From contig CM082587.2 of NCBI GenBank assembly GCA_040954595.2, positions 11,677,598 to 11,741,597 on the forward strand: a stretch of DNA of 64,000 bases, in the 5' to 3' direction. The translations under genes and the position numbers were made by a program. Numbering within the stretch: position 1 is the stretch's first letter; each line of letters opens with the position of its first letter. Source of the DNA: Balanoglossus misakiensis. Its lineage: Eukaryota; Animalia; Hemichordata. Shown piece after piece: positions 1 through 28,394 of this stretch. The notes beneath the pieces were generated by a model. It saw only the letters and a program-made list of their open reading frames with translations. It was not told the DNA's origin and made no database searches.

Positions 1-521
1 GTTTATTGGTGGCAGTTGAGCTGAGGAGAGCACCTTCCTTCCCGGCACGCCACCAAGTAAAGTTCCACGCCGCCCACCACAGATGCCAGCATTCATTCAT
101 GCGAGTGAGTGTAATTGCAAATTTGCCTATTCTAGATCTGTAATGGAAATGGAGAAAGTACCTTATATTTTCTGTAAAATAGACATTTAATTGGCAAGCC
201 GTCCTGCATCAATTATGAATTGTGTACATGCACTAAAGCGCCCTCACTGCTGGGTGTGTTGTATGGTCTTTAACCCTGTTTCAAATTAGAGTACTTTCTG
301 CAATTTCAAGACAGATCTTACGTGCCATTGGAGAGCTCCATTGACTGGTCATTCATACTGTTTTCATTCATTCATTGCGGCATCAATATATTTTATCTAT
401 TCTAGCCAAAGAGCTTGGCACCTGTTGAAATGAACTCATCTGCTGTGGGCCAGTTTATTGGTGGCAGTTGAGCTGAGGAGAGCACCTTCCTTCCCGGCAC
501 GCCACCAAGTAAAGTTCCACG
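1..521 (+). repeat. Satellite array, end of the upstream block (452-bp monomer)
   Basis: The sequence at 1 (gtttattggtggcagttgag) recurs at 453. The array ends at ...aagtaaagttccacg (521), where cassette sequence begins. Confidence 0.97.
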
Positions 522-2314
522 TGCATTCCTGGCCCTGGTTTTATTTATGTTTACAGACAATATTGCATTTTTGTACAAGTATTTTAATCAACTATAAATT
601 TTGAATGTGTCATTTACCTGAACCGGTCATGTTGACCAGAATGATACATTTCTGCCTTCACTCACCCTATAAATATGTGATTGAGACATAGGTCATTTGC
701 ATAAGCTAACATACCAGAAAGTAAGCATATCTGTTGTTTTCCCTGTGTCACTGCCATCAAAGTAAAAATTAGACGTTGTGTAGAGCAAACTCCAATTTTT
801 TGTTCTCAATAAACATGGATGAATTACATAGAATGTGTTTGTTGTTTACAGTCTTTAAATGACACATTAGATTATGCACTTTACAAAACGTTTCTGAGAA
901 ACAAGTGACTAACTAGTTTCTTTCCACTGTGGCCAACGTGGTTCACTGTTTGTGTCAGAATCTCTCTGTTTTGCAAGGATTTTGAAATCATAGTGGTGAC
1001 ATGCATAGTGAAAATCAGCTACTTTCAAATGTCCGTCATGTTCATGCTGTAATTGAATTTTCAAAGCTGGGCTGGCGTGTTTTTTCTTATTTACATAAGT
1101 ATCACACTTTATACATGTATCTTCATGGGGTTTTTTGAGTCCCGTATTTAGGTCCTCTCTCACAATTTTACGAAATATCGTATAACTGACAGTTGTTCTT
1201 CCCAGAAGAGATTGGTTGGTTATGAACTCTCGGTGTAACTGCGATATACTGTGGTCCGGCGCCAGGTACGGTTTAAATCGAGGATTCCTGCAGTAGTGAG
1301 ATTCTACAATTCTGTGCCTGCGTACGTGTTCAGTGATATCAGTCAGCAAATTTGGATTGAGTTTCCGACGATGCCCTTTGTGTCGGCCCCTTGCATCTGG
1401 CATCAGACCAGTAAAGTTCCATGTGCATTCCTGGCCCTGGTTTTATTTATGTTTACAGACAATATTGCATTTTTGTACAAGTATTTTAATCAACTATAAA
1501 TTTTGAATGTGTCATTTACCTGAACCGGTCATGTTGACCAGAATGATACATTTCTGCCTTCACTCACCCTATAAATATGTGATTGAGACATAGGTCATTT
1601 GCATAAGCTAACATACCAGAAAGTAAGCATATCTGTTGTTTTCCCTGTGTCACTGCCATCAAAGTAAAAATTAGACGTTGTGTAGAGCAAACTCCAATTT
1701 TTTGTTCTCAATAAACATGGATGAATTACATAGAATGTGTTTGTTGTTTACAGTCTTTAAATGACACATTAGATTATGCACTTTACAAAACGTTTCTGAG
1801 AAACAAGTGACTAACTAGTTTCTTTCCACTGTGGCCAACGTGGTTCACTGTTTGTGTCAGAATCTCTCTGTTTTGCAAGGATTTTGAAATCATAGTGGTG
1901 ACATGCATAGTGAAAATCAGCTACTTTCAAATGTCCGTCATGTTCATGCTGTAATTGAATTTTCAAAGCTGGGCTGGCGTGTTTTTTCTTATTTACATAA
2001 GTATCACACTTTATACATGTATCTTCATGGGGTTTTCTGAGTCCCGTATTTAGGTCCTCTCTCACAATTTTACGAAATATCGTATAACTGACAGTTGTTC
2101 TTCCCAGAAGAGATTGGTTGGTTATGAACTCTCGGTGTAACTGCGATATACTGTGGTCCGGCGCCAGGTACGGTTTAAATCGAGGATTCCTGCAGTAGTG
2201 AGATTCTACAATTCTGTGCCTGCGTACGTGTTCAGTGATATCAGTCAGCAAATTTGGATTGAGTTTCCGACGATGCCCTTTGTGTCGGCCCCTTGCATCT
2301 GGCATCAGACCAGT
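511..2314. repeat. 902-bp tandem duplication (511-1412 / 1413-2314)
   Basis: ORF ends at 909 and 1811 are 902 bp apart. I see two differences (520 C/1422 T; 1135 T/2037 C, K vs R). AGT microhomology at the junction (1410-1412). Confidence 0.95.
909..1412 (-). pseudogene. 5'-truncated duplicate of the transposase N-half gene (last ~165 codons)
   Basis: Protein identical to the C-terminal part of the 1811-2767 ORF except one K/R change. It lacks that gene's 5' end and promoter. Confidence 0.85.
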
Positions 2315-2767
2315 TGAACAGTGCATCATTTTGCTTAGAACGGTTCTAGTCCGCCTCTCACTAATGCCAAATAATTTCAGGAATGCATTTTTGCAGACAG
2401 TAACCGTTTCACCGCCTTCATTCACCAGGTGATAACGAACCGATTTCTTGTGTGACTTCATCTGTATATCCATCAGTTTGTAGAGCATCAAGTTCTGTTC
2501 ATTATACACGCGACCATCAAAATATTTTCTCGTGGTGCCTAAAACATGCGTACTCCCAAGCTTCCGCAGACAATTCCCTTGAACGCAGGCGCATTCCAAG
2601 GAAAGACTGTCAATATCTGGAAAAGGGCGATTTTTCCTTGGTTTTTGTCTCGGACACGTCTTTTTAGAATTCCTACGTGGCTTGTTGGCTCGAGCTGACA
2701 GTTCGGTTCTGCGTTGCTGCCACACAGGAATGGGTTCCCACGCATAAGCAACTCCCCGGCAGGCCAT
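1811..2767 (-). CDS. Sola-like transposase, N-terminal (DNA-binding, Cys/His-rich) half, ~318 aa
   Basis: Motifs CACVQGNC, VCKNAFLKLFGISERR, DARGRH, ESHYCR...YL, FRKI...N.GL.KP.EDTC..CD and HL..A are typical of the N-terminal region of Sola-type transposases. First ATG at 2767, TAG at 1811-1813. No catalytic domain. Confidence 0.8.
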   Translation of the reverse strand: MACRGVAYAWEPIPVWQQRRTELSARANKPRRNSKKTCPRQKPRKNRPFPDIDSLSLECACVQGNCLRKLGSTHVLGTTRKYFDGRVYNEQNLMLYKLMDIQMKSHKKSVRYHLVNEGGETVTVCKNAFLKLFGISERRTRTVLSKMMHCSTGLMPDARGRHKGHRRKLNPNLLTDITEHVRRHRIVESHYCRNPRFKPYLAPDHSISQLHREFITNQSLLGRTTVSYTIFRKIVREDLNTGLRKPHEDTCIKCDTYVNKKKHASPALKIQLQHEHDGHLKVADFHYACHHYDFKILAKQRDSDTNSEPRWPQWKETS

Positions 2768-2938
2768 GGTCACAGCTGAAGTATTTGTTCAAGTACTGAC
2801 TGACTAAACGCGGCATGGAACAAACGAACGAACGAACGAACGACTTCACGTTCGGAAAAAAAATCGTTGCGAGCTGTTGGGTGCCTCTATAGTTGTCGGC
2901 AACCGTTCTTTTTTATTGCTAAACAATGCTGTCAGAGC
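2768..2938. promoter_or_regulatory. Putative bidirectional promoter between the two transposase halves, with an (AACG)n microsatellite
   Basis: 171 bp between two divergent ATGs; aacg x5 at ~2823-2842; GTTCGGAA at 2850-2857. Promoter function is inferred from position only. Confidence 0.5.
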
Positions 2939-3952
2939 ATGGAAGGTGTGGTGGAAAACGAACAGAGGTTTTGTACGACCAACGATTGGATGGTGCTACA
3001 TATGGACTTCCACAAGTCATTGCCGGTTCCTAAACTCAGCTCTGAAGACTTTTACTTTAAATCGAAATTGCAAATGAAGCTCCTTGGAATTTACAACGGG
3101 ACAACGGAAAAGATGCATTGTTATGTATGGACAGAGCTCGATAGCAGAAAGTCTCCCGATGAAGTTATTACCTGTCTAAATCACTTTTTTTATAACTCGG
3201 GTGTGACCAGCAGACATGCAGTTATTTACAGCGACAACTGCCGTGCCGAATTCAAGTGTGGGAAGTTAATGTTTTACTATGACTATCTGTTACGAAAGGG
3301 CGTGTTTCGACGAATTGACTATAAAACTCTTGTGGCTGGACACACGTACTCCACCTGTGACCGAGTTTTTGCGTCCATTGAAAGGCATGCAAGTCGTTTC
3401 CAGAGTATAGAGACACCTCACGATTGGACATCTGTGATTCGAGGATCTTCTCTGAATGGGAACATTGGAGTTACGGAGATGACTCACAGAGACTTTTTCA
3501 ATTATTCTGATTTCCTGAAAAATGAGTACGTTGTGCGTTATGCAGATACAAACAATGTAACTTTTTACTACCAAGCCATGCACTATTTTAATTTTGGAGA
3601 AGGAGAAAGGCTTGATACCGACGGCAACCTCAGAACATTTAGTCATGCAGATAAAGTTTGGGTGAGAACATCTCTAGATCCAAGCGAGACCCCGATTGTA
3701 GTCGACTTTAGAAAGAAGAAGCAGAACCGGCGTTTACAAGATTGTACGCTGAACAAACTTTATCAGGAACGTCGACCACTGGCGAGCAAAGTTTGGCGGG
3801 ATCTTCAGAGTTTAGCCAAAAATTACCTGTCTCCGGAGGCAATAGAATTTTATAGGAATCTACCGCTTCAGGAGAGTAGTGGCACCTCTGCAGACCCGTA
3901 CGCCTTTCATGATGATGACGACGACGATGATGATGATATGGGCGGTGGTTGA
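2939..3952 (+). CDS. Sola-like DDD transposase, catalytic (RNase H-fold) half, ~337 aa, with acidic C-terminal tail
   Basis: Motifs MDFHKSLPVPKL..FYFKSKL, GIYN, CYVWTE..SPDEVITCL, YSDNC and LVAGHTYSTCDRVFASIE. Candidate triad D23/D99/D141 (codons 3005, 3233, 3359). First ATG at 2939; the ORF-track start at 2867 is a TTG. Confidence 0.85.
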   Translation: MEGVVENEQRFCTTNDWMVLHMDFHKSLPVPKLSSEDFYFKSKLQMKLLGIYNGTTEKMHCYVWTELDSRKSPDEVITCLNHFFYNSGVTSRHAVIYSDNCRAEFKCGKLMFYYDYLLRKGVFRRIDYKTLVAGHTYSTCDRVFASIERHASRFQSIETPHDWTSVIRGSSLNGNIGVTEMTHRDFFNYSDFLKNEYVVRYADTNNVTFYYQAMHYFNFGEGERLDTDGNLRTFSHADKVWVRTSLDPSETPIVVDFRKKKQNRRLQDCTLNKLYQERRPLASKVWRDLQSLAKNYLSPEAIEFYRNLPLQESSGTSADPYAFHDDDDDDDDDMGGG

Positions 3953-4270
3953 ACAAACTGTCCTTTTCATGACGACAGTGATTTTGGATATTTGATGTGC
4001 GTGCACAGTTTATATGTAATATTTTCACACGAACGAGTTTTGACTGAATTTGATTAAAGAATGTACTCGATAATTAACAAATGTGCTGAATCGTGGTTAT
4101 TATGTTGTTAATTTTTGTTTGTTTGTTTGTTTGTTTGTAAACAATTTCCGTTCATTCAACTGGCTACAAAGTTGGATTTTTGTACTGGGAAGCGATAAAC
4201 TCGCACATCAAAACCGGGGAGACTCGATCATTTTTCCCTGCAGGTAGCCTGAAAAGCACCCGGGCAGAGA

Positions 4271-4344
4271 TTACGTCATATATGGTCCACTTTAATACGA
4301 AATTATGCAAATGTGACATTTCACGGAAACGGCGTATATAAAAG
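4271..4344 (+). promoter_or_regulatory. Pol II promoter of the wHTH-SET gene
   Basis: TATATAAAAG at 4335-4344 (~100 bp before ATG 4436), octamer ATGCAAAT at 4305-4312, CRE/ATF-like TTACGTCA at 4271-4278. Confidence 0.55.
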
Positions 4345-4435
4345 CGACCCTGGGCTATTGTTCGGAATGCGTCATCGACGAGAGAGTGACTGATAATTCT
4401 TCTACCTCGAGTCAACCATTCTGTATATACTGAAC

Positions 4436-5762
4436 ATGGCTAGCTGGCGCAGGAAGAGACAAGGCAATGTGCGGTCTGTAATCAACGAACGGCACCGCTC
4501 AGTTCAGTGTCCCTTTCTTCAAAAGTGGATCGGTGAGCAATTGGTATTTTCAGGTCGTTCAGAGGATGAAGTCCAGTCCAGTACTGTATTTGAGAGCTAC
4601 AAATGTTGGGTTGAAAACTATTCGTCGGCGGACAATCAAGTAATGATTATGGTTACTAAAGCTCGATTTTTCAAGGTGAGAATGATCGCATTTTTCTTCC
4701 CCCCCCCCCTCCCTCCCCCAAGGGACTCGTTTTCTGTCTCTTTTAAACCTGTAACTTAACGAAAAGGAAGTTTTTCACATATCTCTTTGTTGACACTATA
4801 GCAATTTGGAGCGCGGATGCTTCAAGAGAATAGCGTTACCAAATCAAAGTCGGCCGGGGTTAATATTTATAGAGGTGTTCGTCTGAAAGCTGGTTCGCGA
4901 AGAATCTCAACGGGGAAACCTGAGCACAGTGTACTTCAGACCAGGGCAAGGGCATTTCTTGATGACGCCAGCGTGACCGTTCCGATCGAGGTAAGAATGG
5001 TGTTTTGTTTGGACTAGGACAATAGAACGTTGCAATGAGTGTGTCAATGGGTGTCCAAGTGCAAACGTGGTCGGCTTCTGTCCACAAATGCCATTAATTT
5101 TAGGCAGGATTTATAAAATTGTCAATGAAGAATACAAAAATGAAAAACAATAGTTAATAGCAAACGGGTAGGATTGCAAGGGCTTGTAAAACGGTACACA
5201 CTGTACCAGGAAGTTTGCAACACTAATGAAGAATGTATATGATATATTTAGGTGAGAACTGTTCGCGATCGCCGGGACGCAGGACGGTGCGCGTTTTCGA
5301 CGAGGGATCTTCAAGCCTGGAACGTCGTCTGCGAATACCGGGGCACGGTTATTAGCGTTGAAGAAGCTAGTCGGCGTGATGAACTTTACAGGGCAGAGGG
5401 GAAACGACCACGCATGTTTCATCTCTACATTGGAAAGAGACACGTTGTGTGAGTGTATCACTTAGTCGAATATATGGTCATATATTGCAAAGCATCTGTC
5501 GAAATAGAAAACGTAATATTGTCTATATTTTCCTCATTAACGCAGCATTGACGGATACGATGTCCCAGCCGGTGAAGAAAATTTAGCGGGCCTAATAAAT
5601 CACAGTCAGCAGAACGCCAACTTGGTACCGGTTCGGATCGGAGAGCGCCTGGTTTTCTTTGCAACCAGGAATCTTTGTCAGGGAGTAGAGCTTTTGTATG
5701 ATTACGGTGACGGGGGTGAAGAGGATTTCTTCAGTGGTTCTCAAACTTTTCCTGAAAATTAA
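4436..5762 (+). CDS. Spliced gene, ~280 aa: RFX/D5-like winged helix fused to a SET8/PR-Set7-like SET domain; exons 4436-4675, 4802-4990, 5252-5448, 5546-5762
   Basis: GT-AG introns (AAG|gtgag..tatag, GAG|gtaag..tttag, GT|gtgagt..cgcag; phases 0,0,2) join one open frame. SET motifs: GRCAFSTRDL..VCEYRG.VIS.EEA.RR..LY, IDG, GLINHS..NAN, FATRNL.QG.ELLYDYGD. The N-terminus WI..QL..VFESYKCWVE..KARFFKQF..IYRGVRLK resembles an RFX/D5 winged helix (less certain). Confidence 0.85.
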
Positions 5763-5808
5763 GGCATTAACACATCAACGCTTCGGGATGTCGTAACGGC
5801 GGCAAGGC

Positions 5809-5828
5809 GGGGGGGGGGGGGGGGGGGG
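5809..5828 (+). repeat. G20 homopolymer downstream of the SET gene
   Basis: Read directly; also 20 G in copy 2 (28441-28460). Confidence 0.9.
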
Positions 5829-6670
5829 CGTGAAAATGTTTGTATCAGGAACAAAATTCCCGTGCAAATCACCTTGATCCGGGTGGGTGGACTATTCGCG
5901 ACAAATGTTGAAATCATACAAAGCATTTTACTTAATTAACCCATTTTTTTCATTTATTTGTTTACAGTTTACAACGTCATAGAGAAGTTGAACTAGAGAC
6001 TGGATCAGCGTGGGTGACACCATAGTACACCAATGTTTTCTTCAGTTTGATTCAATTGTAATTTAAAACTGAGATTGCCTAACGCTTTCCCAGATTTTTT
6101 TAACCACTGAGAAACTGTGGGTTTTTTTCTGGGTTTTGGTGCGAGGTGATCTCAGTCAGTGGTGTTAATTTAATTAATCATTTTCTTTTCCTATTTACGT
6201 CGACTGAAATGTATTTTGATAGGTGATAGTCATACCATAAAAAAATCTTACGGCGCGACTGCCAAAATGTACATTTATTTGTCCGTTCCAAGTTATTTTG
6301 TGTATGTGTGATGGGTGCCGGTGACTGTGCAGGGTTGATTTCCCTAGAGCGACTGTTATATTCGTTTTCCAACGATGATGAATTTACATGTTATTTGCTT
6401 GGCATTTTGACGCAGAGACACTTCTGAAAACACAAACCTATTAATTATGCCACGGGTGTAAATTGATCACATTAAAAGAGGCTTTAGACGTTTGCCGCGA
6501 GCTCCTGGTGGGCAGAATCTTGTCAGCCCAAATTTGACTATAAGTACATAGCCAATGATGTGACGCTCTCCCACATCCTTCGCCGCGCCTTTTCGCTGAT
6601 TTACAGCATCTTGCGTAAACACTGTCATTTGATCTTGCTTGGCAGAAGTCAACTTGCTCTATACTACATT

Positions 6671-7036
6671 ATGGCGGCCAAGCTCAACTGCATATCAGAT
6701 AATGCCAAGGAGCGTTTGAGAGGCATCCTCGCCAGAAGGAGTCGCGTTTCCGGTGACTGTGTGCTCTGGACGGGTGCAGCTTGTCGAAACGGCTATGGCT
6801 CTATTACGTTCAGAGATGAGAACACTCTAACCGCCTATGTCCATCACATTGCACTCCTAATTAACGGAGTGCAATTGGTGGGCAGGCGGTTAGAGTGTTC
6901 TCATCTTTGCAACGAAAAGCTATGCATCCGCCCAGAGCACATTGTCCAGGAAACGCGACTCCTAAACATTTCACGAAAGACGTGCTTTAAATCCCCAAAA
7001 GGGGAGTGTCACCACGATCCCAGGTGCCTAAGGTGA
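6671..7036 (+). CDS. His-Cys box / His-Me finger zinc-binding endonuclease (I-PpoI-like), ~121 aa
   Basis: Motifs DCVLWTGA..NGYG, AYVHHIA, ECSHLCNEKLCIRPEHIVQET..NISRKTC and C.H.PRC. First ATG at 6671; the ORF-track start at 6560 is a GTG. Confidence 0.85.
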   Translation: MAAKLNCISDNAKERLRGILARRSRVSGDCVLWTGAACRNGYGSITFRDENTLTAYVHHIALLINGVQLVGRRLECSHLCNEKLCIRPEHIVQETRLLNISRKTCFKSPKGECHHDPRCLR

Positions 7037-7288
7037 GTAATCCTCTTCTCATTTGATATGTATTGTGTGACCCTGCAGTTGAAACGCTTTCATCAATAAT
7101 TTGCGGCGCGTGGGTAATCTCGGTGTTATTGACAATGCAGCCGGCCCAAACATTTTTAAATTAACACTGTTTCTGACTGTATTAACGAAATGTCCAATTT
7201 GCAAGTAGCCTATAGACAACCCTTTTGAATGAGTTTTGTCTCGTTGAGATTTTATACATAAGGAACAATCTAGATTTATTTTAGAAGA

Positions 7289-7708
7289 CACTGTTCTTTT
7301 AAAACAGCTAGCATAATACAGCTAAATTTCGGAATTTCCGGACAATTTTCGGAATTCCTTTTAAATTTGAGAAATTTTTCATCAGATATAAGTGTTACTA
7401 TTTATTGGACATGTTTTTATCATTGTTTACTTTTTAAGGTCATTCTCATCCCCCCCCCCCCCCCCCAAAAAAAAGCCGCTTTAGGCTTCATGTTCAGTAA
7501 AAAATCTGGAAAGTTCAGCTGAATTTTACACTGATCACACATTTTTGGGAAGGTCTGGCGCAAAATAAAGGATGACAAATGTAAATCTAATGTCACATTT
7601 GTAAACCTCTAAGTATTGTACACTCATTCTATTAAGTATATGCAAATAGTACGGATAATTTTTTCGGAATGTGGAATTCCGAAATTAGTTCGGAACGTGT
7701 TAGCAGTG
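7289..7708. mobile_element. Possible MITE-like insertion (CACTG...CAGTG, flanking AAGA direct repeat, subterminal inverted TTCGGAAT motifs)
   Basis: AAGA at 7285-7288 and 7709-7712. ctaaatttcggaatttcc (~7322) pairs imperfectly with ggaattccgaaattag (~7673). The perfect terminal match is only 5 bp. Confidence 0.3.
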
Positions 7709-8668: not shown

Positions 8669-11600
8669 ATATTTTCTGTAAAATAGACATTTAATTGGCA
8701 AGCCGTCCTGCATCAATTATTAATTGTGTACATGCACTAAAGCGCCCTCACTGCTGGGTGTGTTGTATGGTCTTTAACCCTGTTTCAAATTAGAGTACTT
8801 TCTGCAATTTCAAGACAGATCTTACGTGCCATTGGAGAGCTCCATTGACTGGTCATTCATACTGTTTTCATTCATTCATTGCGGCATCAATATATTTTAT
8901 GTATTCTAGCCAAAGAGCTTGGCACCTGTTGAAATGAACTCATCTGCTGTGGGCCAGTTTATTGGTGGCAGTTGAGCTGAGGAGAGCACCTTCCTTCCCG
9001 GCACGCCACCAAGTAAAGTTCCACGCCGCCCACCACAGATGCCAGCATTCATTCATGCGAGTGAGTGTAATTGCAAATTTGCCTATTCTAGATCTGTAAT
9101 GGAAATGGAGAAAGTACCTTATATTTTCTGTAAAATAGACATTTAATTGGCAAGCCGTCCTGCATCAATTATTAATTGTGTACATGCACTAAAGCGCCCT
9201 CACTGCTGGGTGTGTTGTATGGTCTTTAACCCTGTTTCAAATTAGAGTACTTTCTGCAATTTCAAGACAGATCTTACGTGCCATTGGAGAGCTCCATTGA
9301 CTGGTCATTCATACTGTTTTCATTCATTCATTGCGGCATCAATATATTTTATCTATTCTAGCCAAAGAGCTTGGCACCTGTTGAAATGAACTCATCTGCT
9401 GTGGGCCAGTTTATTGGTGGCAGTTGAGCTGAGGAGAGCACCTTCCTTCCCGGCACGCCACCAAGTAAAGTTCCACGCCGCCCACCACAGATGCCAGCAT
9501 TCATTCATGCGAGTGAGTGTAATTGCAAATTTGCCTATTCTAGAATTACGTGCCATTGGAGAGCTCCATTGACTGGTCATTCATACTGTTTTCATTCATT
9601 CATTGCGGCATCAATATATTTTATCTATTCTAGCCAAAGAGCTTGGCACCTGTTGAAATGAACTCATCTGCTGTGGGCCAGTTTATTGGTGGCAGTTGAG
9701 CTGAGGAGAGCACCTTCCTTCCCGGCACGCCACCAAGTAAAGTTCCACGCCGCCCACCACAGATGCCAGCATTCATTCATGCGAGTGAGTGTAATTGCAA
9801 ATTTGCCTATTCTAGATCTGTAATGGAAATGGAGAAAGTACCTTATATTTTCTGTAAAATAGACATTTAATTGGCAAGCCGTCCTGCATCAATTATGAAT
9901 TGTGTACATGCACTAAAGCGCCCTCACTGCTGGGTGTGTTGTATGGTCTTTAACCCTGTTTCAAATTAGAGTACTTTCTGCAATTTCAAGACAGATCTTA
10001 CGTGCCATTGGAGAGCTCCATTGACTGGTCATTCATACTGTTTTCATTCATTCATTGCGGCATCAATATATTTTATCTATTCTAGCCAAAGAGCTTGGCA
10101 CCTGTTGAAATGAACTCATCTGCTGTGGGCCAGTTTATTGGTGGCAGTTGAGCTGAGGAGAGCACCTTCCTTCCCGGCACGCCACCAAGTAAAGTTCCAC
10201 GCCGCCCACCACAGATGCCAGCATTCATTCATGCGAGTGAGTGTAATTGCAAATTTGCCTATTCTAGAATCTTACGTGCCATTGGAGAGCTCCATTGACT
10301 GGTCATTCATACTGTTTTCATTCATTCATTGCGGCATCAATATATTTTATCTATTCTAGCCAAAGAGCTTGGCACCTGTTGAAATGAACTCATCTGCTGT
10401 GGGCCAGTTTATTGGTGGCAGTTGAGCTGAGGAGAGCACCTTCCTTCCCGGCACGCCACCAAGTAAAGTTCCACGCCGCCCACCACAGATGCCAGCATTC
10501 ATTCATGCGAGTGAGTGTAATTGCAAATTTGCCTATTCTAGATCTGTAATGGAAATGGAGAAAGTACCTTATATTTTCTGTAAAATAGACATTTAATTGG
10601 CAAGCCGTCCTGCATCAATTATTAATTGTGTACATGCACTAAAGCGCCCTCACTGCTGGGTGTGTTGTATGGTCTTTAACCCTGTTTCAAATTAGAGTAC
10701 TTTCTGCAATTTCAAGACAGATCTTACGTGCCATTGGAGAGCTCCATTGACTGGTCATTCATACTGTTTTCATTCATTCATTGCGGCATCAATATATTTT
10801 ATCTATTCTAGCCAAAGAGCTTGGCACCTGTTGAAATGAACTCATCTGCTGTGGGCCAGTTTATTGGTGGCAGTTGAGCTGAGAAGAGCACCTTCCTTCC
10901 CGGCACGCCACCAAGTAAAGTTCCACGCCGCCCACCACAGATGCCAGCATTCATTCATGCGAGTGAGTGTAATTGCAAATTTGCCTATTCTAGATCTGTA
11001 ATGGAAATGGAGAAAGTACCTTATATTTTCTGTAAAATAGACATTTAATTGGCAAGCCGTCCTGCATCAATTATGAATTGTGTACATGCACTAAAGCGCC
11101 CTCACTGCTGGGTGTGTTGTATGGTCTTTAACCCTGTTTCAAATTAGAGTACTTTCTGCAATTTCAAGACAGATCTTACGTGCCATTGGAGAGCTCCATT
11201 GACTGGTCATTCATACTGTTTTCATTCATTCATTGCGGCATCAATATATTTTATCTATTCTAGCCAAAGAGCTTGGCACCTGTTGAAATGAACTCATCTG
11301 CTGTGGGCCAGTTTATTGGTGGCAGTTGAGCTGAGGAGAGCACCTTCCTTCCCGGCACGCCACCAAGTAAAGTTCCACGCCGCCCACCACAGATGCCAGC
11401 ATTCATTCATGCGAGTGAGTGTAATTGCAAATTTGCCTATTCTAGATCTGTAATGGAAATGGAGAAAGTACCTTATATTTTCTGTAAAATAGACATTTAA
11501 TTGGCAAGCCGTCCTGCATCAATTATGAATTGTGTACATGCACTAAAGCGCCCTCACTGCTGGGTGTGTTGTATGGTCTTTAACCCTGTTTCAAATTAGA

Positions 11601-14600
11601 GTACTTTCTGCAATTTCAAGACAGATCTTACGTGCCATTGGAGAGCTCCATTGACTGGTCATTCATACTGTTTTCATTCATTCATTGCGGCATCAATATA
11701 TTTTATCTATTCTAGCCAAAGAGCTTGGCACCTGTTGAAATGAACTCATCTGCTGTGGGCCAGTTTATTGGTGGCAGTTGAGCTGAGGAGAGCACCTTCC
11801 TTCCCGGCACGCCACCAAGTAAAGTTCCACGCCGCCCACCACAGATGCCAGCATTCATTCATGCGAGTGAGTGTAATTGCAAATTTGCCTATTCTAGATC
11901 TGTAATGGAAATGGAGAAAGTACCTTATATTTTCTGTAAAATAGACATTTAATTGGCAAGCCGTCCTGCATCAATTATGAATTGTGTACATGCACTAAAG
12001 CGCCCTCACTGCTGGGTGTGTTGTATGGTCTTTAACCCTGTTTCAAATTAGAGTACTTTCTGCAATTTCAAGACAGATCTTACGTGCCATTGGAGAGCTC
12101 CATTGACTGGTCATTCATACTGTTTTCATTCATTCATTGCGGCATCAATATATTTTATCTATTCTAGCCAAAGAGCTTGGCACCTGTTGAAATGAACTCA
12201 TCTGCTGTGGGCCAGTTTATTGGTGGCAGTTGAGCTGAGGAGAGCACCTTCCTTCCCGGCACGCCACCAAGTAAAGTTCCACGCCGCCCACCACAGATGC
12301 CAGCATTCATTCATGCGAGTGAGTGTAATTGCAAATTTGCCTATTCTAGATCTGTAATGGAAATGGAGAAAGTACCTTATATTTTCTGTAAAATAGACAT
12401 TTAATTGGCAAGCCGTCCTGCATCAATTATGAATTGTGTACATGCACTAAAGCGCCCTCACTGCTGGGTGTGTTGTATGGTCTTTAACCCTGTTTCAAAT
12501 TAGAGTACTTTCTGCAATTTCAAGACAGATCTTACGTGCCATTGGAGAGCTCCATTGACTGGTCATTCATACTGTTTTCATTCATTCATTGCGGCATCAA
12601 TATATTTTATCTATTCTAGCCAAAGAGCTTGGCACCTGTTGAAATGAACTCATCTGCTGTGGGCCAGTTTATTGGTGGCAGTTGAGCTGAGAAGAGCACC
12701 TTCCTTCCCGGCACGCCACCAAGTAAAGTTCCACGCCGCCCACCACAGATGCCAGCATTCATTCATGCGAGTGAGTGTAATTGCAAATTTGCCTATTCTA
12801 GAATCTTACGTGCCATTGGAGAGCTCCATTGACTGGTCATTCATACTGTTTTCATTCATTCATTGCGGCATCAATATATTTTATCTATTCTAGCCAAAGA
12901 GCTTGGCACCTGTTGAAATGAACTCATCTGCTGTGGGCCAGTTTATTGGTGGCAGTTGAGCTGAGGAGAGCACCTTCCTTCCCGGGACGCCACCAAGTAA
13001 AGTTCCACGCCGCCCACCACAGATGCCAGCATTCATTCATGCGAGTGAGTGTAATTGCAAATTTGCCTATTCTAGATTCTTACGTGCCATTGGAGAGCTC
13101 CATTGACTGGTCATTCATACTGTTTTCATTCATTCATTGCGGCATCAATATATTTTATCTATTCTAGCCAAAGAGCTTGGCACCTGTTGAAATGAACTCA
13201 TCTGCTGTGGGCCAGTTTATTGGTGGCAGTTGAGCTGAGGAGAGCACCTTCCTTCCCGGCACGCCACCAAGTAAAGTTCCACGCCGCCCACCACAGATGC
13301 CAGCATTCATTCATGCGAGTGAGTGTAATTGCAAATTTGCCTATTCTAGATCTGTAATGGAAATGGAGAAAGTACCTTATATTTTCTGTAAAATAGACAT
13401 TTAATTGGCAAGCCGTCCTGCATCAATTATTAATTGTGTACATGCACTAAAGCGCCCTCACTGCTGGGTGTGTTGTATGGTCTTTAACCCTGTTTCAAAT
13501 TAGAGTACTTTCTGCAATTTCAAGACAGATCTTACGTGCCATTGGAGAGCTCCATTGACTGGTCATTCATACTGTTTTCATTCATTCATTGCGGCATCAA
13601 TATATTTTATCTATTCTAGCCAAAGAGCTTGGCACCTGTTGAAATGAACTCATCTGCTGTGGGCCAGTTTATTGGTGGCAGTTGAGCTGAGGAGAGCACC
13701 TTCCTTCCCGGCACGCCACCAAGTAAAGTTCCACGCCGCCCACCACAGATGCCAGCATTCATTCATGCGAGTGAGTGTAATTGCAAATTTGCCTATTCTA
13801 GATCTGTAATGGAAATGGAGAAAGTACCTTATATTTTCTGTAAAATAGACATTTAATTGGCAAGCCGTCCTGCATCAATTATTAATTGTGTACATGCACT
13901 AAAGCGCCCTCACTGCTGGGTGTGTTGTATGGTCTTTAACCCTGTTTCAAATTAGAGTACTTTCTGCAATTTCAAGACAGATCTTACGTGCCATTGGAGA
14001 GCTCCATTGACTGGTCATTCATACTGTTTTCATTCATTCATTGCGGCATCAATATATTTTATCTATTCTAGCCAAAGAGCTTGGCACCTGTTGAAATGAA
14101 CTCATCTGCTGTGGGCCAGTTTATTGGTGGCAGTTGAGCTGAGGAGAGCACCTTCCTTCCCGGCACGCCACCAAGTAAAGTTCCACGCCGCCCACCACAG
14201 ATGCCAGCATTCATTCATGCGAGTGAGTGTAATTGCAAATTTGCCTATTCTAGAATTACGTGCCATTGGAGAGCTCCATTGACTGGTCATTCATACTGTT
14301 TTCATTCATTCATTGCGGCATCAATATATTTTATCTATTCTAGCCAAAGAGCTTGGCACCTGTTGAAATGAACTCATCTGCTGTGGGCCAGTTTATTGGT
14401 GGCAGTTGAGCTGAGGAGAGCACCTTCCTTCCCGGCACGCCACCAAGTAAAGTTCCACGCCGCCCACCACAGATGCCAGCATTCATTCATGCGAGTGAGT
14501 GTAATTGCAAATTTGCCTATTCTAGATCTGTAATGGAAATGGAGAAAGTACCTTATATTTTCTGTAAAATAGACATTTAATTGGCAAGCCGTCCTGCATC

Positions 14601-17600
14601 AATTATGAATTGTGTACATGCACTAAAGCGCCCTCACTGCTGGGTGTGTTGTATGGTCTTTAACCCTGTTTCAAATTAGAGTACTTTCTGCAATTTCAAG
14701 ACAGATCTTACGTGCCATTGGAGAGCTCCATTGACTGGTCATTCATACTGTTTTCATTCATTCATTGCGGCATCAATATATTTTATCTATTCTAGCCAAA
14801 GAGCTTGGCACCTGTTGAAATGAACTCATCTGCTGTGGGCCAGTTTATTGGTGGCAGTTGAGCTGAGGAGAGCACCTTCCTTCCCGGCACGCCACCAAGT
14901 AAAGTTCCACGCCGCCCACCACAGATGCCAGCATTCATTCATGCGAGTGAGTGTAATTGCAAATTTGCCTATTCTAGAATCTTACGTGCCATTGGAGAGC
15001 TCCATTGACTGGTCATTCATACTGTTTTCATTCATTCATTGCGGCATCAATATATTTTATCTATTCTAGCCAAAGAGCTTGGCACCTGTTGAAATGAACT
15101 CATCTGCTGTGGGCCAGTTTATTGGTGGCAGTTGAGCTGAGGAGAGCACCTTCCTTCCCGGCACGCCACCAAGTAAAGTTCCACGCCGCCCACCACAGAT
15201 GCCAGCATTCATTCATGCGAGTGAGTGTAATTGCAAATTTGCCTATTCTAGATCTGTAATGGAAATGGAGAAAGTACCTTATATTTTCTGTAAAATAGAC
15301 ATTTAATTGGCAAGCCGTCCTGCATCAATTATTAATTGTGTACATGCACTAAAGCGCCCTCACTGCTGGGTGTGTTGTATGGTCTTTAACCCTGTTTCAA
15401 ATTAGAGTACTTTCTGCAATTTCAAGACAGATCTTACGTGCCATTGGAGAGCTCCATTGACTGGTCATTCATACTGTTTTCATTCATTCATTGCGGCATC
15501 AATATATTTTATCTATTCTAGCCAAAGAGCTTGGCACCTGTTGAAATGAACTCATCTGCTGTGGGCCAGTTTATTGGTGGCAGTTGAGCTGAGAAGAGCA
15601 CCTTCCTTCCCGGCACGCCACCAAGTAAAGTTCCACGCCGCCCACCACAGATGCCAGCATTCATTCATGCGAGTGAGTGTAATTGCAAATTTGCCTATTC
15701 TAGATCTGTAATGGAAATGGAGAAAGTACCTTATATTTTCTGTAAAATAGACATTTAATTGGCAAGCCGTCCTGCATCAATTATGAATTGTGTACATGCA
15801 CTAAAGCGCCCTCACTGCTGGGTGTGTTGTATGGTCTTTAACCCTGTTTCAAATTAGAGTACTTTCTGCAATTTCAAGACAGATCTTACGTGCCATTGGA
15901 GAGCTCCATTGACTGGTCATTCATACTGTTTTCATTCATTCATTGCGGCATCAATATATTTTATCTATTCTAGCCAAAGAGCTTGGCACCTGTTGAAATG
16001 AACTCATCTGCTGTGGGCCAGTTTATTGGTGGCAGTTGAGCTGAGGAGAGCACCTTCCTTCCCGGCACGCCACCAAGTAAAGTTCCACGCCGCCCACCAC
16101 AGATGCCAGCATTCATTCATGCGAGTGAGTGTAATTGCAAATTTGCCTATTCTAGATCTGTAATGGAAATGGAGAAAGTACCTTATATTTTCTGTAAAAT
16201 AGACATTTAATTGGCAAGCCGTCCTGCATCAATTATGAATTGTGTACATGCACTAAAGCGCCCTCACTGCTGGGTGTGTTGTATGGTCTTTAACCCTGTT
16301 TCAAATTAGAGTACTTTCTGCAATTTCAAGACAGATCTTACGTGCCATTGGAGAGCTCCATTGACTGGTCATTCATACTGTTTTCATTCATTCATTGCGG
16401 CATCAATATATTTTATCTATTCTAGCCAAAGAGCTTGGCACCTGTTGAAATGAACTCATCTGCTGTGGGCCAGTTTATTGGTGGCAGTTGAGCTGAGGAG
16501 AGCACCTTCCTTCCCGGCACGCCACCAAGTAAAGTTCCACGCCGCCCACCACAGATGCCAGCATTCATTCATGCGAGTGAGTGTAATTGCAAATTTGCCT
16601 ATTCTAGATCTGTAATGGAAATGGAGAAAGTACCTTATATTTTCTGTAAAATAGACATTTAATTGGCAAGCCGTCCTGCATCAATTATGAATTGTGTACA
16701 TGCACTAAAGCGCCCTCACTGCTGGGTGTGTTGTATGGTCTTTAACCCTGTTTCAAATTAGAGTACTTTCTGCAATTTCAAGACAGATCTTACGTGCCAT
16801 TGGAGAGCTCCATTGACTGGTCATTCATACTGTTTTCATTCATTCATTGCGGCATCAATATATTTTATCTATTCTAGCCAAAGAGCTTGGCACCTGTTGA
16901 AATGAACTCATCTGCTGTGGGCCAGTTTATTGGTGGCAGTTGAGCTGAGGAGAGCACCTTCCTTCCCGGCACGCCACCAAGTAAAGTTCCACGCCGCCCA
17001 CCACAGATGCCAGCATTCATTCATGCGAGTGAGTGTAATTGCAAATTTGCCTATTCTAGATCTGTAATGGAAATGGAGAAAGTACCTTATATTTTCTGTA
17101 AAATAGACATTTAATTGGCAAGCCGTCCTGCATCAATTATGAATTGTGTACATGCACTAAAGCGCCCTCACTGCTGGGTGTGTTGTATGGTCTTTAACCC
17201 TGTTTCAAATTAGAGTACTTTCTGCAATTTCAAGACAGATCTTACGTGCCATTGGAGAGCTCCATTGACTGGTCATTCATACTGTTTTCATTCATTCATT
17301 GCGGCATCAATATATTTTATCTATTCTAGCCAAAGAGCTTGGCACCTGTTGAAATGAACTCATCTGCTGTGGGCCAGTTTATTGGTGGCAGTTGAGCTGA
17401 GAAGAGCACCTTCCTTCCCGGCACGCCACCAAGTAAAGTTCCACGCCGCCCACCACAGATGCCAGCATTCATTCATGCGAGTGAGTGTAATTGCAAATTT
17501 GCCTATTCTAGAATCTTACGTGCCATTGGAGAGCTCCATTGACTGGTCATTCATACTGTTTTCATTCATTCATTGCGGCATCAATATATTTTATCTATTC

Positions 17601-20600
17601 TAGCCAAAGAGCTTGGCACCTGTTGAAATGAACTCATCTGCTGTGGGCCAGTTTATTGGTGGCAGTTGAGCTGAGGAGAGCACCTTCCTTCCCGGGACGC
17701 CACCAAGTAAAGTTCCACGCCGCCCACCACAGATGCCAGCATTCATTCATGCGAGTGAGTGTAATTGCAAATTTGCCTATTCTAGATTCTTACGTGCCAT
17801 TGGAGAGCTCCATTGACTGGTCATTCATACTGTTTTCATTCATTCATTGCGGCATCAATATATTTTATCTATTCTAGCCAAAGAGCTTGGCACCTGTTGA
17901 AATGAACTCATCTGCTGTGGGCCAGTTTATTGGTGGCAGTTGAGCTGAGGAGAGCACCTTCCTTCCCGGCACGCCACCAAGTAAAGTTCCACGCCGCCCA
18001 CCACAGATGCCAGCATTCATTCATGCGAGTGAGTGTAATTGCAAATTTGCCTATTCTAGATCTGTAATGGAAATGGAGAAAGTACCTTATATTTTCTGTA
18101 AAATAGACATTTAATTGGCAAGCCGTCCTGCATCAATTATTAATTGTGTACATGCACTAAAGCGCCCTCACTGCTGGGTGTGTTGTATGGTCTTTAACCC
18201 TGTTTCAAATTAGAGTACTTTCTGCAATTTCAAGACAGATCTTACGTGCCATTGGAGAGCTCCATTGACTGGTCATTCATACTGTTTTCATTCATTCATT
18301 GCGGCATCAATATATTTTATCTATTCTAGCCAAAGAGCTTGGCACCTGTTGAAATGAACTCATCTGCTGTGGGCCAGTTTATTGGTGGCAGTTGAGCTGA
18401 GGAGAGCACCTTCCTTCCCGGCACGCCACCAAGTAAAGTTCCACGCCGCCCACCACAGATGCCAGCATTCATTCATGCGAGTGAGTGTAATTGCAAATTT
18501 GCCTATTCTAGAATTACGTGCCATTGGAGAGCTCCATTGACTGGTCATTCATACTGTTTTCATTCATTCATTGCGGCATCAATATATTTTATCTATTCTA
18601 GCCAAAGAGCTTGGCACCTGTTGAAATGAACTCATCTGCTGTGGGCCAGTTTATTGGTGGCAGTTGAGCTGAGGAGAGCACCTTCCTTCCCGGCACGCCA
18701 CCAAGTAAAGTTCCACGCCGCCCACCACAGATGCCAGCATTCATTCATGCGAGTGAGTGTAATTGCAAATTTGCCTATTCTAGATCTGTAATGGAAATGG
18801 AGAAAGTACCTTATATTTTCTGTAAAATAGACATTTAATTGGCAAGCCGTCCTGCATCAATTATGAATTGTGTACATGCACTAAAGCGCCCTCACTGCTG
18901 GGTGTGTTGTATGGTCTTTAACCCTGTTTCAAATTAGAGTACTTTCTGCAATTTCAAGACAGATCTTACGTGCCATTGGAGAGCTCCATTGACTGGTCAT
19001 TCATACTGTTTTCATTCATTCATTGCGGCATCAATATATTTTATCTATTCTAGCCAAAGAGCTTGGCACCTGTTGAAATGAACTCATCTGCTGTGGGCCA
19101 GTTTATTGGTGGCAGTTGAGCTGAGGAGAGCACCTTCCTTCCCGGCACGCCACCAAGTAAAGTTCCACGCCGCCCACCACAGATGCCAGCATTCATTCAT
19201 GCGAGTGAGTGTAATTGCAAATTTGCCTATTCTAGATCTGTAATGGAAATGGAGAAAGTACCTTATATTTTCTGTAAAATAGACATTTAATTGGCAAGCC
19301 GTCCTGCATCAATTATGAATTGTGTACATGCACTAAAGCGCCCTCACTGCTGGGTGTGTTGTATGGTCTTTAACCCTGTTTCAAATTAGAGTACTTTCTG
19401 CAATTTCAAGACAGATCTTACGTGCCATTGGAGAGCTCCATTGACTGGTCATTCATACTGTTTTCATTCATTCATTTCGGCATCAATATATTTTATCTAT
19501 TCTAGCCAAAGAGCTTGGCACCTGTTGAAATGAACTCATCTGCTGTGGGCCAGTTTATTGGTGGCAGTTGAGCTGAGAAGAGCACCTTCCTTCCCGGCAC
19601 GCCACCAAGTAAAGTTCCACGCCGCCCACCACAGATGCCAGCATTCATTCATGCGAGTGAGTGTAATTGCAAATTTGCCTATTCTAGAATCTTACGTGCC
19701 ATTGGAGAGCTCCATTGACTGGTCATTCATACTGTTTTCATTCATTCATTGCGGCATCAATATATTTTATCTATTCTAGCCAAAGAGCTTGGCACCTGTT
19801 GAAATGAACTCATCTGCTGTGGGCCAGTTTATTGGTGGCAGTTGAGCTGAGGAGAGCACCTTCCTTCCCGGGACGCCACCAAGTAAAGTTCCACGCCGCC
19901 CACCACAGATGCCAGCATTCATTCATGCGAGTGAGTGTAATTGCAAATTTGCCTATTCTAGATTCTTACGTGCCATTGGAGAGCTCCATTGACTGGTCAT
20001 TCATACTGTTTTCATTCATTCATTGCGGCATCAATATATTTTATCTATTCTAGCCAAAGAGCTTGGCACCTGTTGAAATGAACTCATCTGCTGTGGGCCA
20101 GTTTATTGGTGGCAGTTGAGCTGAGGAGAGCACCTTCCTTCCCGGCACGCCACCAAGTAAAGTTCCACGCCGCCCACCACAGATGCCAGCATTCATTCAT
20201 GCGAGTGAGTGTAATTGCAAATTTGCCTATTCTAGATCTGTAATGGAAATGGAGAAAGTACCTTATATTTTCTGTAAAATAGACATTTAATTGGCAAGCC
20301 GTCCTGCATCAATTATTAATTGTGTACATGCACTAAAGCGCCCTCACTGCTGGGTGTGTTGTATGGTCTTTAACCCTGTTTCAAATTAGAGTACTTTCTG
20401 CAATTTCAAGACAGATCTTACGTGCCATTGGAGAGCTCCATTGACTGGTCATTCATACTGTTTTCATTCATTCATTGCGGCATCAATATATTTTATCTAT
20501 TCTAGCCAAAGAGCTTGGCACCTGTTGAAATGAACTCATCTGCTGTGGGCCAGTTTATTGGTGGCAGTTGAGCTGAGGAGAGCACCTTCCTTCCCGGCAC

Positions 20601-23153
20601 GCCACCAAGTAAAGTTCCACGCCGCCCACCACAGATGCCAGCATTCATTCATGCGAGTGAGTGTAATTGCAAATTTGCCTATTCTAGAATTACGTGCCAT
20701 TGGAGAGCTCCATTGACTGGTCATTCATACTGTTTTCATTCATTCATTGCGGCATCAATATATTTTATCTATTCTAGCCAAAGAGCTTGGCACCTGTTGA
20801 AATGAACTCATCTGCTGTGGGCCAGTTTATTGGTGGCAGTTGAGCTGAGGAGAGCACCTTCCTTCCCGGCACGCCACCAAGTAAAGTTCCACGCCGCCCA
20901 CCACAGATGCCAGCATTCATTCATGCGAGTGAGTGTAATTGCAAATTTGCCTATTCTAGATCTGTAATGGAAATGGAGAAAGTACCTTATATTTTCTGTA
21001 AAATAGACATTTAATTGGCAAGCCGTCCTGCATCAATTATGAATTGTGTACATGCACTAAAGCGCCCTCACTGCTGGGTGTGTTGTATGGTCTTTAACCC
21101 TGTTTCAAATTAGAGTACTTTCTGCAATTTCAAGACAGATCTTACGTGCCATTGGAGAGCTCCATTGACTGGTCATTCATACTGTTTTCATTCATTCATT
21201 GCGGCATCAATATATTTTATCTATTCTAGCCAAAGAGCTTGGCACCTGTTGAAATGAACTCATCTGCTGTGGGCCAGTTTATTGGTGGCAGTTGAGCTGA
21301 GGAGAGCACCTTCCTTCCCGGCACGCCACCAAGTAAAGTTCCACGCCGCCCACCACAGATGCCAGCATTCATTCATGCGAGTGAGTGTAATTGCAAATTT
21401 GCCTATTCTAGATCTGTAATGGAAATGGAGAAAGTACCTTATATTTTCTGTAAAATAGACATTTAATTGGCAAGCCGTCCTGCATCAATTATTAATTGTG
21501 TACATGCACTAAAGCGCCCTCACTGCTGGGTGTGTTGTATGGTCTTTAACCCTGTTTCAAATTAGAGTACTTTCTGCAATTTCAAGACAGATCTTACGTG
21601 CCATTGGAGAGCTCCATTGACTGGTCATTCATACTGTTTTCATTCATTCATTGCGGCATCAATATATTTTATCTATTCTAGCCAAAGAGCTTGGCACCTG
21701 TTGAAATGAACTCATCTGCTGTGGGCCAGTTTATTGGTGGCAGTTGAGCTGAGAAGAGCACCTTCCTTCCCGGCACGCCACCAAGTAAAGTTCCACGCCG
21801 CCCACCACAGATGCCAGCATTCATTCATGCGAGTGAGTGTAATTGCAAATTTGCCTATTCTAGATCTGTAATGGAAATGGAGAAAGTACCTTATATTTTC
21901 TGTAAAATAGACATTTAATTGGCAAGCCGTCCTGCATCAATTATGAATTGTGTACATGCACTAAAGCGCCCTCACTGCTGGGTGTGTTGTATGGTCTTTA
22001 ACCCTGTTTCAAATTAGAGTACTTTCTGCAATTTCAAGACAGATCTTACGTGCCATTGGAGAGCTCCATTGACTGGTCATTCATACTGTTTTCATTCATT
22101 CATTGCGGCATCAATATATTTTATCTATTCTAGCCAAAGAGCTTGGCACCTGTTGAAATGAACTCATCTGCTGTGGGCCAGTTTATTGGTGGCAGTTGAG
22201 CTGAGGAGAGCACCTTCCTTCCCGGCACGCCACCAAGTAAAGTTCCACGCCGCCCACCACAGATGCCAGCATTCATTCATGCGAGTGAGTGTAATTGCAA
22301 ATTTGCCTATTCTAGATCTGTAATGGAAATGGAGAAAGTACCTTATATTTTCTGTAAAATAGACATTTAATTGGCAAGCCGTCCTGCATCAATTATGAAT
22401 TGTGTACATGCACTAAAGCGCCCTCACTGCTGGGTGTGTTGTATGGTCTTTAACCCTGTTTCAAATTAGAGTACTTTCTGCAATTTCAAGACAGATCTTA
22501 CGTGCCATTGGAGAGCTCCATTGACTGGTCATTCATACTGTTTTCATTCATTCATTGCGGCATCAATATATTTTATCTATTCTAGCCAAAGAGCTTGGCA
22601 CCTGTTGAAATGAACTCATCTGCTGTGGGCCAGTTTATTGGTGGCAGTTGAGCTGAGGAGAGCACCTTCCTTCCCGGCACGCCACCAAGTAAAGTTCCAC
22701 GCCGCCCACCACAGATGCCAGCATTCATTCATGCGAGTGAGTGTAATTGCAAATTTGCCTATTCTAGATCTGTAATGGAAATGGAGAAAGTACCTTATAT
22801 TTTCTGTAAAATAGACATTTAATTGGCAAGCCGTCCTGCATCAATTATGAATTGTGTACATGCACTAAAGCGCCCTCACTGCTGGGTGTGTTGTATGGTC
22901 TTTAACCCTGTTTCAAATTAGAGTACTTTCTGCAATTTCAAGACAGATCTTACGTGCCATTGGAGAGCTCCATTGACTGGTCATTCATACTGTTTTCATT
23001 CATTCATTGCGGCATCAATATATTTTATCTATTCTAGCCAAAGAGCTTGGCACCTGTTGAAATGAACTCATCTGCTGTGGGCCAGTTTATTGGTGGCAGT
23101 TGAGCTGAGGAGAGCACCTTCCTTCCCGGCACGCCACCAAGTAAAGTTCCACG
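8669..23153 (+). repeat. Satellite array 1 (~14.5 kb, ~37 monomers: 452 bp plus four 272-bp and eight 274-bp variants)
   Basis: Near-identical tandem monomers. Higher-order periods of 4710 bp (9392->14102) and 2176 bp (17382->19558). Confidence 0.98.
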
Positions 23154-27067: not shown

Positions 27068-28394
27068 ATGGCTAGCTGGCGCAGGAAGAGACAAGGCAAT
27101 GTGCGGTCTGTAATCAACGAACGGCACCGCTCAGTTCAGTGTCCCTTTCTTCAAAAGTGGATCGGTGAGCAATTGGTATTTTCAGGTCGTTCAGAGGATG
27201 AAGTCCAGTCCAGTACTGTATTTGAGAGCTACAAATGTTGGGTTGAAAACTATTCGTCGGCGGACAATCAAGTAATGATTATGGTTACTAAAGCTCGATT
27301 TTTCAAGGTGAGAATGATCGCATTTTTCTTCCCCCCCCCCCTCCCTCCCCCAAGGGACTCGTTTTCTGTCTCTTTTAAACCTGTAACTTAACGAAAAGGA
27401 AGTTTTTCACATATCTCTTTGTTGACACTATAGCAATTTGGAGCGCGGATGCTTCAAGAGAATAGCGTTACCAAATCAAAGTCGGCCGGGGTTAATATTT
27501 ATAGAGGTGTTCGTCTGAAAGCTGGTTCGCGAAGAATCTCAACGGGGAAACCTGAGCACAGTGTACTTCAGACCAGGGCAAGGGCATTTCTTGATGACGC
27601 CAGCGTGACCGTTCCGATCGAGGTAAGAATGGTGTTTTGTTTGGACTAGGACAATAGAACGTTGCAATGAGTGTGTCAATGGGTGTCCAAGTGCAAACGT
27701 GGTCGGCTTCTGTCCACAAATGCCATTAATTTTAGGCAGGATTTATAAAATTGTCAATGAAGAATACAAAAATGAAAAACAATAGTTAATAGCAAACGGG
27801 TAGGATTGCAAGGGCTTGTAAAACGGTACACACTGTACCAGGAAGTTTGCAACACTAATGAAGAATGTATATGATATATTTAGGTGAGAACTGTTCGCGA
27901 TCGCCGGGACGCAGGACGGTGCGCGTTTTCGACGAGGGATCTTCAAGCCTGGAACGTCGTCTGCGAATACCGGGGCACGGTTATTAGCGTTGAAGAAGCT
28001 AGTCGGCGTGATGAACTTTACAGGGCAGAGGGGAAACGACCACGCATGTTTCATCTCTACATTGGAAAGAGACACGTTGTGTGAGTGTATCACTTAGTCG
28101 AATATATGGTCATATATTGCAAAGCATCTGTCGAAATAGAAAACGTAATATTGTCTATATTTTCCTCATTAACGCAGCATTGACGGATACGATGTCCCAG
28201 CCGGTGAAGAAAATTTAGCGGGCCTAATAAATCACAGTCAGCAGAACGCCAACTTGGTACCGGTTCGGATCGGAGAGCGCCTGGTTTTCTTTGCAACCAG
28301 GAATCTTTGTCAGGGAGTAGAGCTTTTGTATGATTACGGTGACGGGGGTGAAGAGGATTTCTTCAGTGGTTCTCAAACTTTTCCTGAAAATTAA
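27068..28394 (+). CDS. wHTH-SET spliced gene (copy 2); exons 27068-27307, 27434-27622, 27884-28080, 28178-28394
   Basis: Copy of 4436-5762 with the same splice sites and the LINHS and ELLYDYG motifs. Confidence 0.85.

Follow-up and report, generated by a model that had tools for sequence, protein, structure and literature searches.

The question raised by this locus is whether a DNA-binding fold and a SET methyltransferase domain are joined in a single gene and, if so, what such a protein would do for the DNA that carries it. In the DNA analysed (the window, 64,000 nt from the hemichordate Balanoglossus misakiensis), four exons at 4436-5762 on the forward strand give 280 codons plus a stop when joined, as computed from the sequence (Table 1). 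The introns are all GT-AG, with lengths of 126, 261 and 97 nt and phases of 0, 0 and 2, in agreement with a preliminary description that had proposed three canonical introns, a 280-aa frame and a last exon with the motifs LINHS and ELLYDYGD, both of which lie in exon 4. By a simple consensus score, donor 1 ranked first among the 97 GT sites in 4400-5800 and donor 2 tied for second, while acceptors 3 and 1 were second and third among 41 YAG sites and acceptor 2 was weaker.

Table 1. Coordinates of features in the window and, for L012 and L015, in the respective metagenome locus
Feature	Position	Strand	Remarks
Duplicate of transposase N-half 3' part	504..1412	-	near-identical (99.67% to 1407-2314); joined to satellite
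Transposase N-half gene	1811..2767	-	318 aa; YNEQN, ESHY, DTCxxCD..H..H; predicted DNA-binding part; no Pfam match
Transposase C-half gene	2939..3952	+	DUF7869; invariant D..D..GH..D; predicted catalytic part; PF25273 E 1.4e-14; 6-row alignment
TATA-like box	4335..4343	+	about 100 nt 5' of wH-SET ATG; putative own promoter; read by eye from sequence
wH-SET exon 1	4436..4675	+	basic N-tail and winged-helix helices 1-3, residues 1-80; boundary same in 4/4 exon-1-only matches and 4 loci
wH-SET exon 2	4802..4990	+	end of helix 3, wing hairpin (Y-x-G-hydrophobic), linker, residues 81-143
wH-SET exon 3	5252..5448	+	SET N-half, motif I AGRC, EY; PF00856 E 0.003
wH-SET exon 4	5546..5762	+	SET C-half, N227-H228-S229, Y260, Y262, stop; PF00856 E 1.7e-7; KMT5A matches
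His-Me finger nuclease ORF	6671..7036	+	PF05551 E 6.7e-13; element membership uncertain
Long near-perfect palindrome	6740..6960		over nuclease coding region; -145.7 kcal/mol, z -16.9
452/272-bp satellite block	8669..23153		between cassettes; co-amplified
wH-SET second copy	27068..28394	+	identical, offset +22632; 0 differences over 22632-nt unit
L012 split transposase	779-1810 and 2279-3229	+ and -	separate ORFs, opposite strands
L015 split transposase	5370-6476 and 12558-13176	+ and -	separate ORFs, opposite strands

That exons 1-2 and exons 3-4 of this gene (wH-SET, for winged helix and SET) belong together, as had also been claimed, was evident from comparisons with relatives. Thus, RefSeq XP_070545977.1 (P0005) of the acorn worm Ptychodera flava, a protein of 278 aa and the one RefSeq member of its cluster, aligned over all four exons with 176 of 280 residues identical (46/80, 34/63, 46/66 and 50/71 for exons 1 to 4), without a gap at junctions 1 and 2 and with a one-residue gap close to junction 3. 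Since it is a pipeline model, this record represents an independent prediction, not proof of splicing. A comparison of the genomic frame of exons 1-3 with 1.84 billion representatives gave 18 matches, i.e., three full-length fusions (P0005, P0006 and P0021), four that covered exon 1 only and 11 in the exon 3 region. In each of the four exon-1-only matches, similarity ended at a shared Lys that precedes Val, as expected from a GT donor. A word-index search with exon 1 returned no relative, and one with the full wH-SET alignment returned three proteins only.

A metagenome scan with the exon-3 relatives identified 45 loci, 24 of which belong to the wH-SET family and are termed coral-type because they are 52-70% identical to the coral protein P0009 (Desmophyllum); the other 21 (L025-L045) are unrelated SET domains without a winged helix and were excluded from family counts. 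With a profile built without the 24 family loci, exon 1 was detected upstream in 14 of them. With profiles that included four of the loci, 21 of the 24 had exon 1 or exon 2 and 12 (four lineages) had the complete ordered set of four exons, and neither exon 1 nor exon 2 was detected at the 21 unrelated SET loci. Loci reconstructed from four lineages all had open frames of 285-291 aa, with 31-34% identity to the window protein, in which the codon and phase of each of the three introns agreed with the window; intron lengths ranged from 94 to 2375 nt, and there was a single GC donor. Exons joined at the exact junctions were noted in DNA at L001 (exons 2-3 and 3-4), L003 (exons 2-3) and L002 (exons 3-4); exons 1 and 2 were joined only in the protein records P0005, P0006 and P0021 and in no DNA. 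The exon-by-exon match of XP_070545977.1 and the introns shared by four distant loci indicate that the four-exon structure is not due to chance. wH-SET is thus almost certainly a real spliced gene, splicing in Balanoglossus misakiensis itself being predicted.

Values of dN/dS for exons 2, 3 and 4 were 0.25, 0.07 and 0.16, respectively, for an unsaturated pair of loci (L001/L015), and the value for exon 1 was 0.11 for a pair in which dS was near saturation (L005/L012), with all bootstrap ranges below 1. By these comparisons of coding sequence, the gene is under purifying selection in distant relatives. It is also multi-copy, with differing flanks and some frameshifted copies. The closest named proteins to the window cassette were from hemichordates; viral contigs contained no relative of wH-SET exon 4, and phage tblastn, PHROGs and Rfam provided no relevant match for the window.

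The fold of the N-terminal region was modelled for residues 1-114 of P0005, with the window exons included in the alignment. The model showed a helix-strand-helix-helix-wing topology with a pLDDT of about 90 over residues 30-110 and, among 48,161 solved chains, was closest to RFX1 (Z 9.1, rmsd 2.2, 72 residues aligned), followed by RFX5 (Z 9.0, rmsd 2.6, 77 aligned), the phage P4 origin-binding domain (Z 7.9, rmsd 2.7, 81 aligned) and ASFV PrimPol (Z 7.6, rmsd 3.1, 76 aligned), the next chain having a Z of 6.2. Foldseek placed the same families on top, with probabilities of 0.99 and 0.94 for RFX and E values greater than 0.001. Similarity of language-model features was 0.97 between window exon 1 and clusters that contain Pox_D5 (25-71% of cluster members carry that family) and only 0.82-0.83 for the N-terminal part of P0005, which gave TM values of 0.55-0.60 to primase C-termini. 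Thus, the RFX DNA-binding domain, the phage P4 alpha origin-binding domain and the C-terminal winged helix of D5-type primase-helicases (PF03288) are of the same subtype as the wH-SET N-domain by fold, and the D5-type wing by features as well, but none had a profile match to this domain. In Pfam, no match to the RFX profile was seen at E<=1 or 10 and none to PF03288, and two N-domain profiles searched against the PDB matched neither RFX nor D5; the RFX wing motif is also absent from the window N-domain. Residues of about 25-110 are therefore modelled, with little doubt, as an RFX/D5-type winged-helix fold, and the domain is assigned to the RFX/P4/D5 winged-helix subtype rather than to the RFX family because the fold matches and no sequence profile does. 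The RFX/D5-like winged helix of the preliminary description accordingly stands as a fold and not as a sequence match. Primase and SF3 helicase domains were not among the cassette ORFs.

Helix 3, which is preceded by a short extra helix, and the wing together contain 11 K/R against 1 D/E and are strongly basic. X-box-like sites numbered 2 compared with 2.25 expected and hence were not in excess, and no 8-mer was shared by at least four of five wH-SET upstream regions.

The best sequence match of the P0005 SET domain among solved structures was to KMT5A, i.e., SET8 (E 9e-10, approximately 25% identity), with the next family at 3e-6. In a SET family profile comparison, KMT5A was ahead of MLL4 by a small margin, and KMT5A was also the best SET match by fold, viral SET proteins having fold scores equal to those of cellular ones. 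Each of the eight full-length wH-SET members has NHS, EY and the last Tyr, and the YDY of KMT5A is likewise kept. The window SET domain retains the SAM motif, with Cys in place of the second Gly of motif I, and the catalytic-tyrosine motif; Y172 and Y260 align with KMT5A residues Y245 and Y334 (the switch position), in the numbering of PDB titles. The switch-position Tyr of KMT5A restricts the product to one methyl group, and Y334F structures of KMT5A were among the fold matches. In contrast with these conserved features, the H4-binding stretch, CYMYYF in KMT5A, is PRMFHL in the window and variable among kin. Likeness to SET8 thus does not imply specificity for H4K20 because residues of the H4 groove differ, and of the SET8-like domain claimed earlier, the nearest relative and the SAM and Tyr motifs hold while the H4-binding groove has been replaced. 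The N-terminal winged helix, multiple copies and linkage to a transposase further distinguish wH-SET from KMT5A. In a tree with seven of the unrelated SET domains from L025-L045 as outgroup and KMT5A outside the tree, eight wH-SET SET domains fell on one side of a branch with support of 95/93. From its motifs, wH-SET is predicted to be an active methyltransferase, which we regard as probable. In exon 4 of all four coral-type copies compared (L005, L012, L014 and L015), the switch position is occupied by Trp rather than Tyr or Phe.

Upstream of wH-SET in the window lie two ORFs that face in opposite directions with 171 nt between them and that appear to be the halves of one transposase. The N-half was 28% identical (E 4e-33) to a stand-alone ORF of L012; in the window, L012 and L015, it ends at the same point, just past the same motif, and contains DTC..CD (3/3). 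Residues D68, D144 and D186 of the C-half were invariant in 6/6 sequences, each of which, including a Saccoglossus protein, has a Met shortly before the first strand; the protein search for kin of the C-half covered lengths of 185-590 aa, a range outside which longer unsplit kin would fall. The halves are divergent in the window and convergent in L012 and L015, with the same split point in three lineages. The recurrence in distant loci of separate opposite-strand ORFs with the same end point indicates that the split is a family trait and not damage. The C-half is under purifying selection (dN/dS 0.29), and no relative of it was noted in the PDB by profile, in viral contigs or in a metagenome scan. 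A 902-bp duplication of the 3' part of the N-half gene is also present in the window, the left junction of which shares approximately 12 nt with satellite, as if by microhomology.

The C-half adjoins wH-SET in 4 of the 24 family loci (L001, L012, L014 and L015, from three lineages and in varied order) and the N-half in 2 of the 24. The remaining 20 loci were without transposase; many are short, but seven are near-identical with up to 2.7 kb of flank, and these seven transposase-less 4-kb segments may be non-autonomous copies. The units concerned (L004-L009 and L013, e.g., L005 979-5057) carry wH-SET only, are 99% identical within varied flanks and lack a TIR; an (AAT/AAC)n microsatellite tract marks their left end, and the first intron of L005 is GC-AG. 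Terminal inverted repeats and target duplications were not found in the window or in the loci examined, the ends of which may lie outside the covered sequence. Linkage to a split DUF7869 transposase in the window and at distant loci nevertheless agrees with the tie to a mobile element claimed in the preliminary description, and wH-SET is very probably element-borne. A virus or provirus was considered in view of the D5-type wing, the viral SET matches and the SET ORFs that adomaviruses carry according to the accessible part of PMC12474061, and was rejected because the cassette has no capsid, polymerase or helicase ORF and the gene has conserved spliceosomal introns. Troyka, a retroelement, is unrelated.

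Sola transposases have a DDD triad and a CCHH motif. The D..D..GH..D core and the DTCxxCD..H..H motif found here resemble these Sola motifs, and the motifs of 2767-1811 (-) are those that come before the D..D..GH..D core in Sola-type transposases. The Sola2 transposase, in the accessible text of PMC3627910, is a single 888-aa protein of elements with short TIRs and 4-bp TSDs, in contrast with the two opposite-strand genes noted here and the absence of detected TIRs or TSDs. SET genes are carried by HarbingerS and oomycete MuDR DNA transposons, as described in the available part of PMC12730594, and the putative element resembles these as a DNA transposon with a SET methyltransferase gene. It differs from them in that DUF7869 is the sole transposase match and is split in two and that its SET domain is joined to a winged helix, HarbingerS having been compared by its description.

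The window as a whole is a tandem array in which 452/272-bp satellite blocks separate copies of a cassette some 8 kb long (504-8660). The first two units do not differ over 22,632 nt, and a third cassette, which starts at 63174, is identical over the 827 nt present; spacings are 22.6 and 40.0 kb, and identity extends even to homopolymer runs. The array is therefore either very young or a product of assembly. The satellite monomer at 8821-9272 is 71% like the right flank of the cassette (8053-8199) over 151 nt, from which it thus likely arose, and unequal crossing-over is the most likely way in which the array expanded. By analogy with KolobokP, for which such a role was proposed in the available text of PMC9587614, participation of the nuclease in array growth is possible. 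Like the window, KolobokP combines a transposase, a His-Me finger nuclease, tandem multimers and a repeat unit near 450 bp, but the transposase here appears to be of another type and the word SET is absent from PMC9587614. KolobokP also has long terminal direct repeats that bear TIRs themselves, whereas the 452-bp monomer has only inner inverted repeats and no terminal ones.

The position of wH-SET beside the split transposase suggests that the element, which is likely mobile, would bring along a chromatin-marking enzyme with targeting of its own. In PRDM9 and SETMAR, both of them host genes, a methyltransferase is aimed by a DNA-binding module. VANC of Vandal, in the accessible part of PMC12730594, is an element protein that lifts silencing of the element in a sequence-specific manner. 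All three would be work-alikes of wH-SET, from which they differ in their DNA-binding domains and with which they share no homology outside SET. Chances are about even that wH-SET serves a DNA transposon family with a two-gene transposase as an accessory chromatin enzyme, and roughly equal for and against its being aimed at the element's own chromatin. The winged helix would grip DNA, for which the ends or promoters of the element itself are the most likely sites, and so tether the SET domain, which would add one methyl group, as suggested by the switch Tyr, to a lysine, most likely of a histone. The methyl mark might then keep the small promoters of the element open for transcription and transposition against host silencing.

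Several other explanations were weighed against this reading. The winged helix could act as a non-specific DNA or nucleosome tether, chromatin being marked broadly or at new insertion sites, which is rather unlikely though consistent with the lack of a conserved upstream motif, the nearness of D5-type helicase wings by features, the nucleosome-bound state of an RFX5 entry and the wide variation of helix 3 and wing residues among copies. The three closest solved folds, in contrast, carry titles that name X-box, RFX5 and origin-binding domains, and quick change of the wing would also fit family-specific targets, as argued for VANC in the available text of PMC12730594. The substrate rather than the tether is at issue if wH-SET tunes transposition by methylating the two halves of the transposase or a silencing factor of the host. 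Loss of the KMT5A groove for H4 recognition and the equal fold scores of viral and cellular SET proteins are compatible with a non-histone substrate, which is unlikely in that KMT5A remains the top match by both sequence and fold and a DNA-binding fold suits a chromatin target.

There is only a slim chance that wH-SET is an ordinary or domesticated host gene that transposons have sometimes picked up or landed beside. Three introns kept over a long distance, the 20 of 24 loci without transposase and the single RefSeq member in its cluster would be expected of such a gene; however, the same rare split-transposase subfamily flanks wH-SET in the window as well as in three distant lineages, in varied order, copies are multiple and some have decayed, and only 18 matches were present among 1.84 billion representatives. 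Least probable by far is the satellite-binding and centromeric role suggested by the preliminary description, in which the protein would bind the 452-bp satellite, set centromere-type chromatin and drive the array. Although the satellite surrounds three cassette copies and meets each at the same junction, the monomer resembles the cassette's own flank, relatives keep wH-SET in other surroundings, X-box-like sites are not in excess and identity of the copies makes the array recent or an assembly product.

In the accessible portions of the literature searched, which excluded Repbase and the original Sola paper, neither a fusion of a winged helix to SET nor a Sola-like transposase in two genes was found to have been reported. 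From these sources, transposons are known to carry SET genes, while fusion to a DNA-binding domain and a split transposase appear to be undescribed. To return to the element-borne chromatin enzyme, the locus could, tentatively, represent an undescribed animal DNA transposon lineage that extends from corals to hemichordates and combines a two-gene, opposite-strand transposase with a three-intron fusion of a phage/virus-type origin-binding wing to a SET8-like domain, the fusion being a sequence-aimed histone writer on the element's own chromatin and hence a transposon counterpart of PRDM9; this composite is possible rather than probable. A 280-aa protein with its own predicted DNA-binding fold makes the question of how transposon SET enzymes reach their targets directly testable, as a single construct could reveal which motif is bound, which substrate is modified and how the element is affected. 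If the proposal is true, wH-SET would do in animals what sequence-specific anti-silencing does in plants, might serve as a small targeted chromatin writer, and would connect the origin-binding wings of viruses with RFX-type domains. A further unusual feature, which helps to define the family, is the conserved transposase encoded by two genes.

The cassette also encodes a His-Me finger nuclease, matches to which were absent from all 45 metagenome loci, and this ORF may be a local addition. The palindrome within it contains 73 Watson-Crick and 6 G-U long-range pairs; its folding energy (Table 1) compares with -72.8 kcal/mol for the best of 141 control windows, and none of 500 synonymous-codon nulls folded as well, the null being approximate in that one-sixth of codon-pool stretches were off-frame. 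Such a structure could curb expression of a harmful nuclease or feed small RNAs. Both palindrome arms encode conserved nuclease motifs. A perfect splice donor at 7033-7041 overlaps the nuclease stop, and a further 3' exon is possible. Beyond it, a pair of 23-nt inverted repeats (7336-7358 and 7673-7695), 314 nt apart, perhaps marks a small inserted element.
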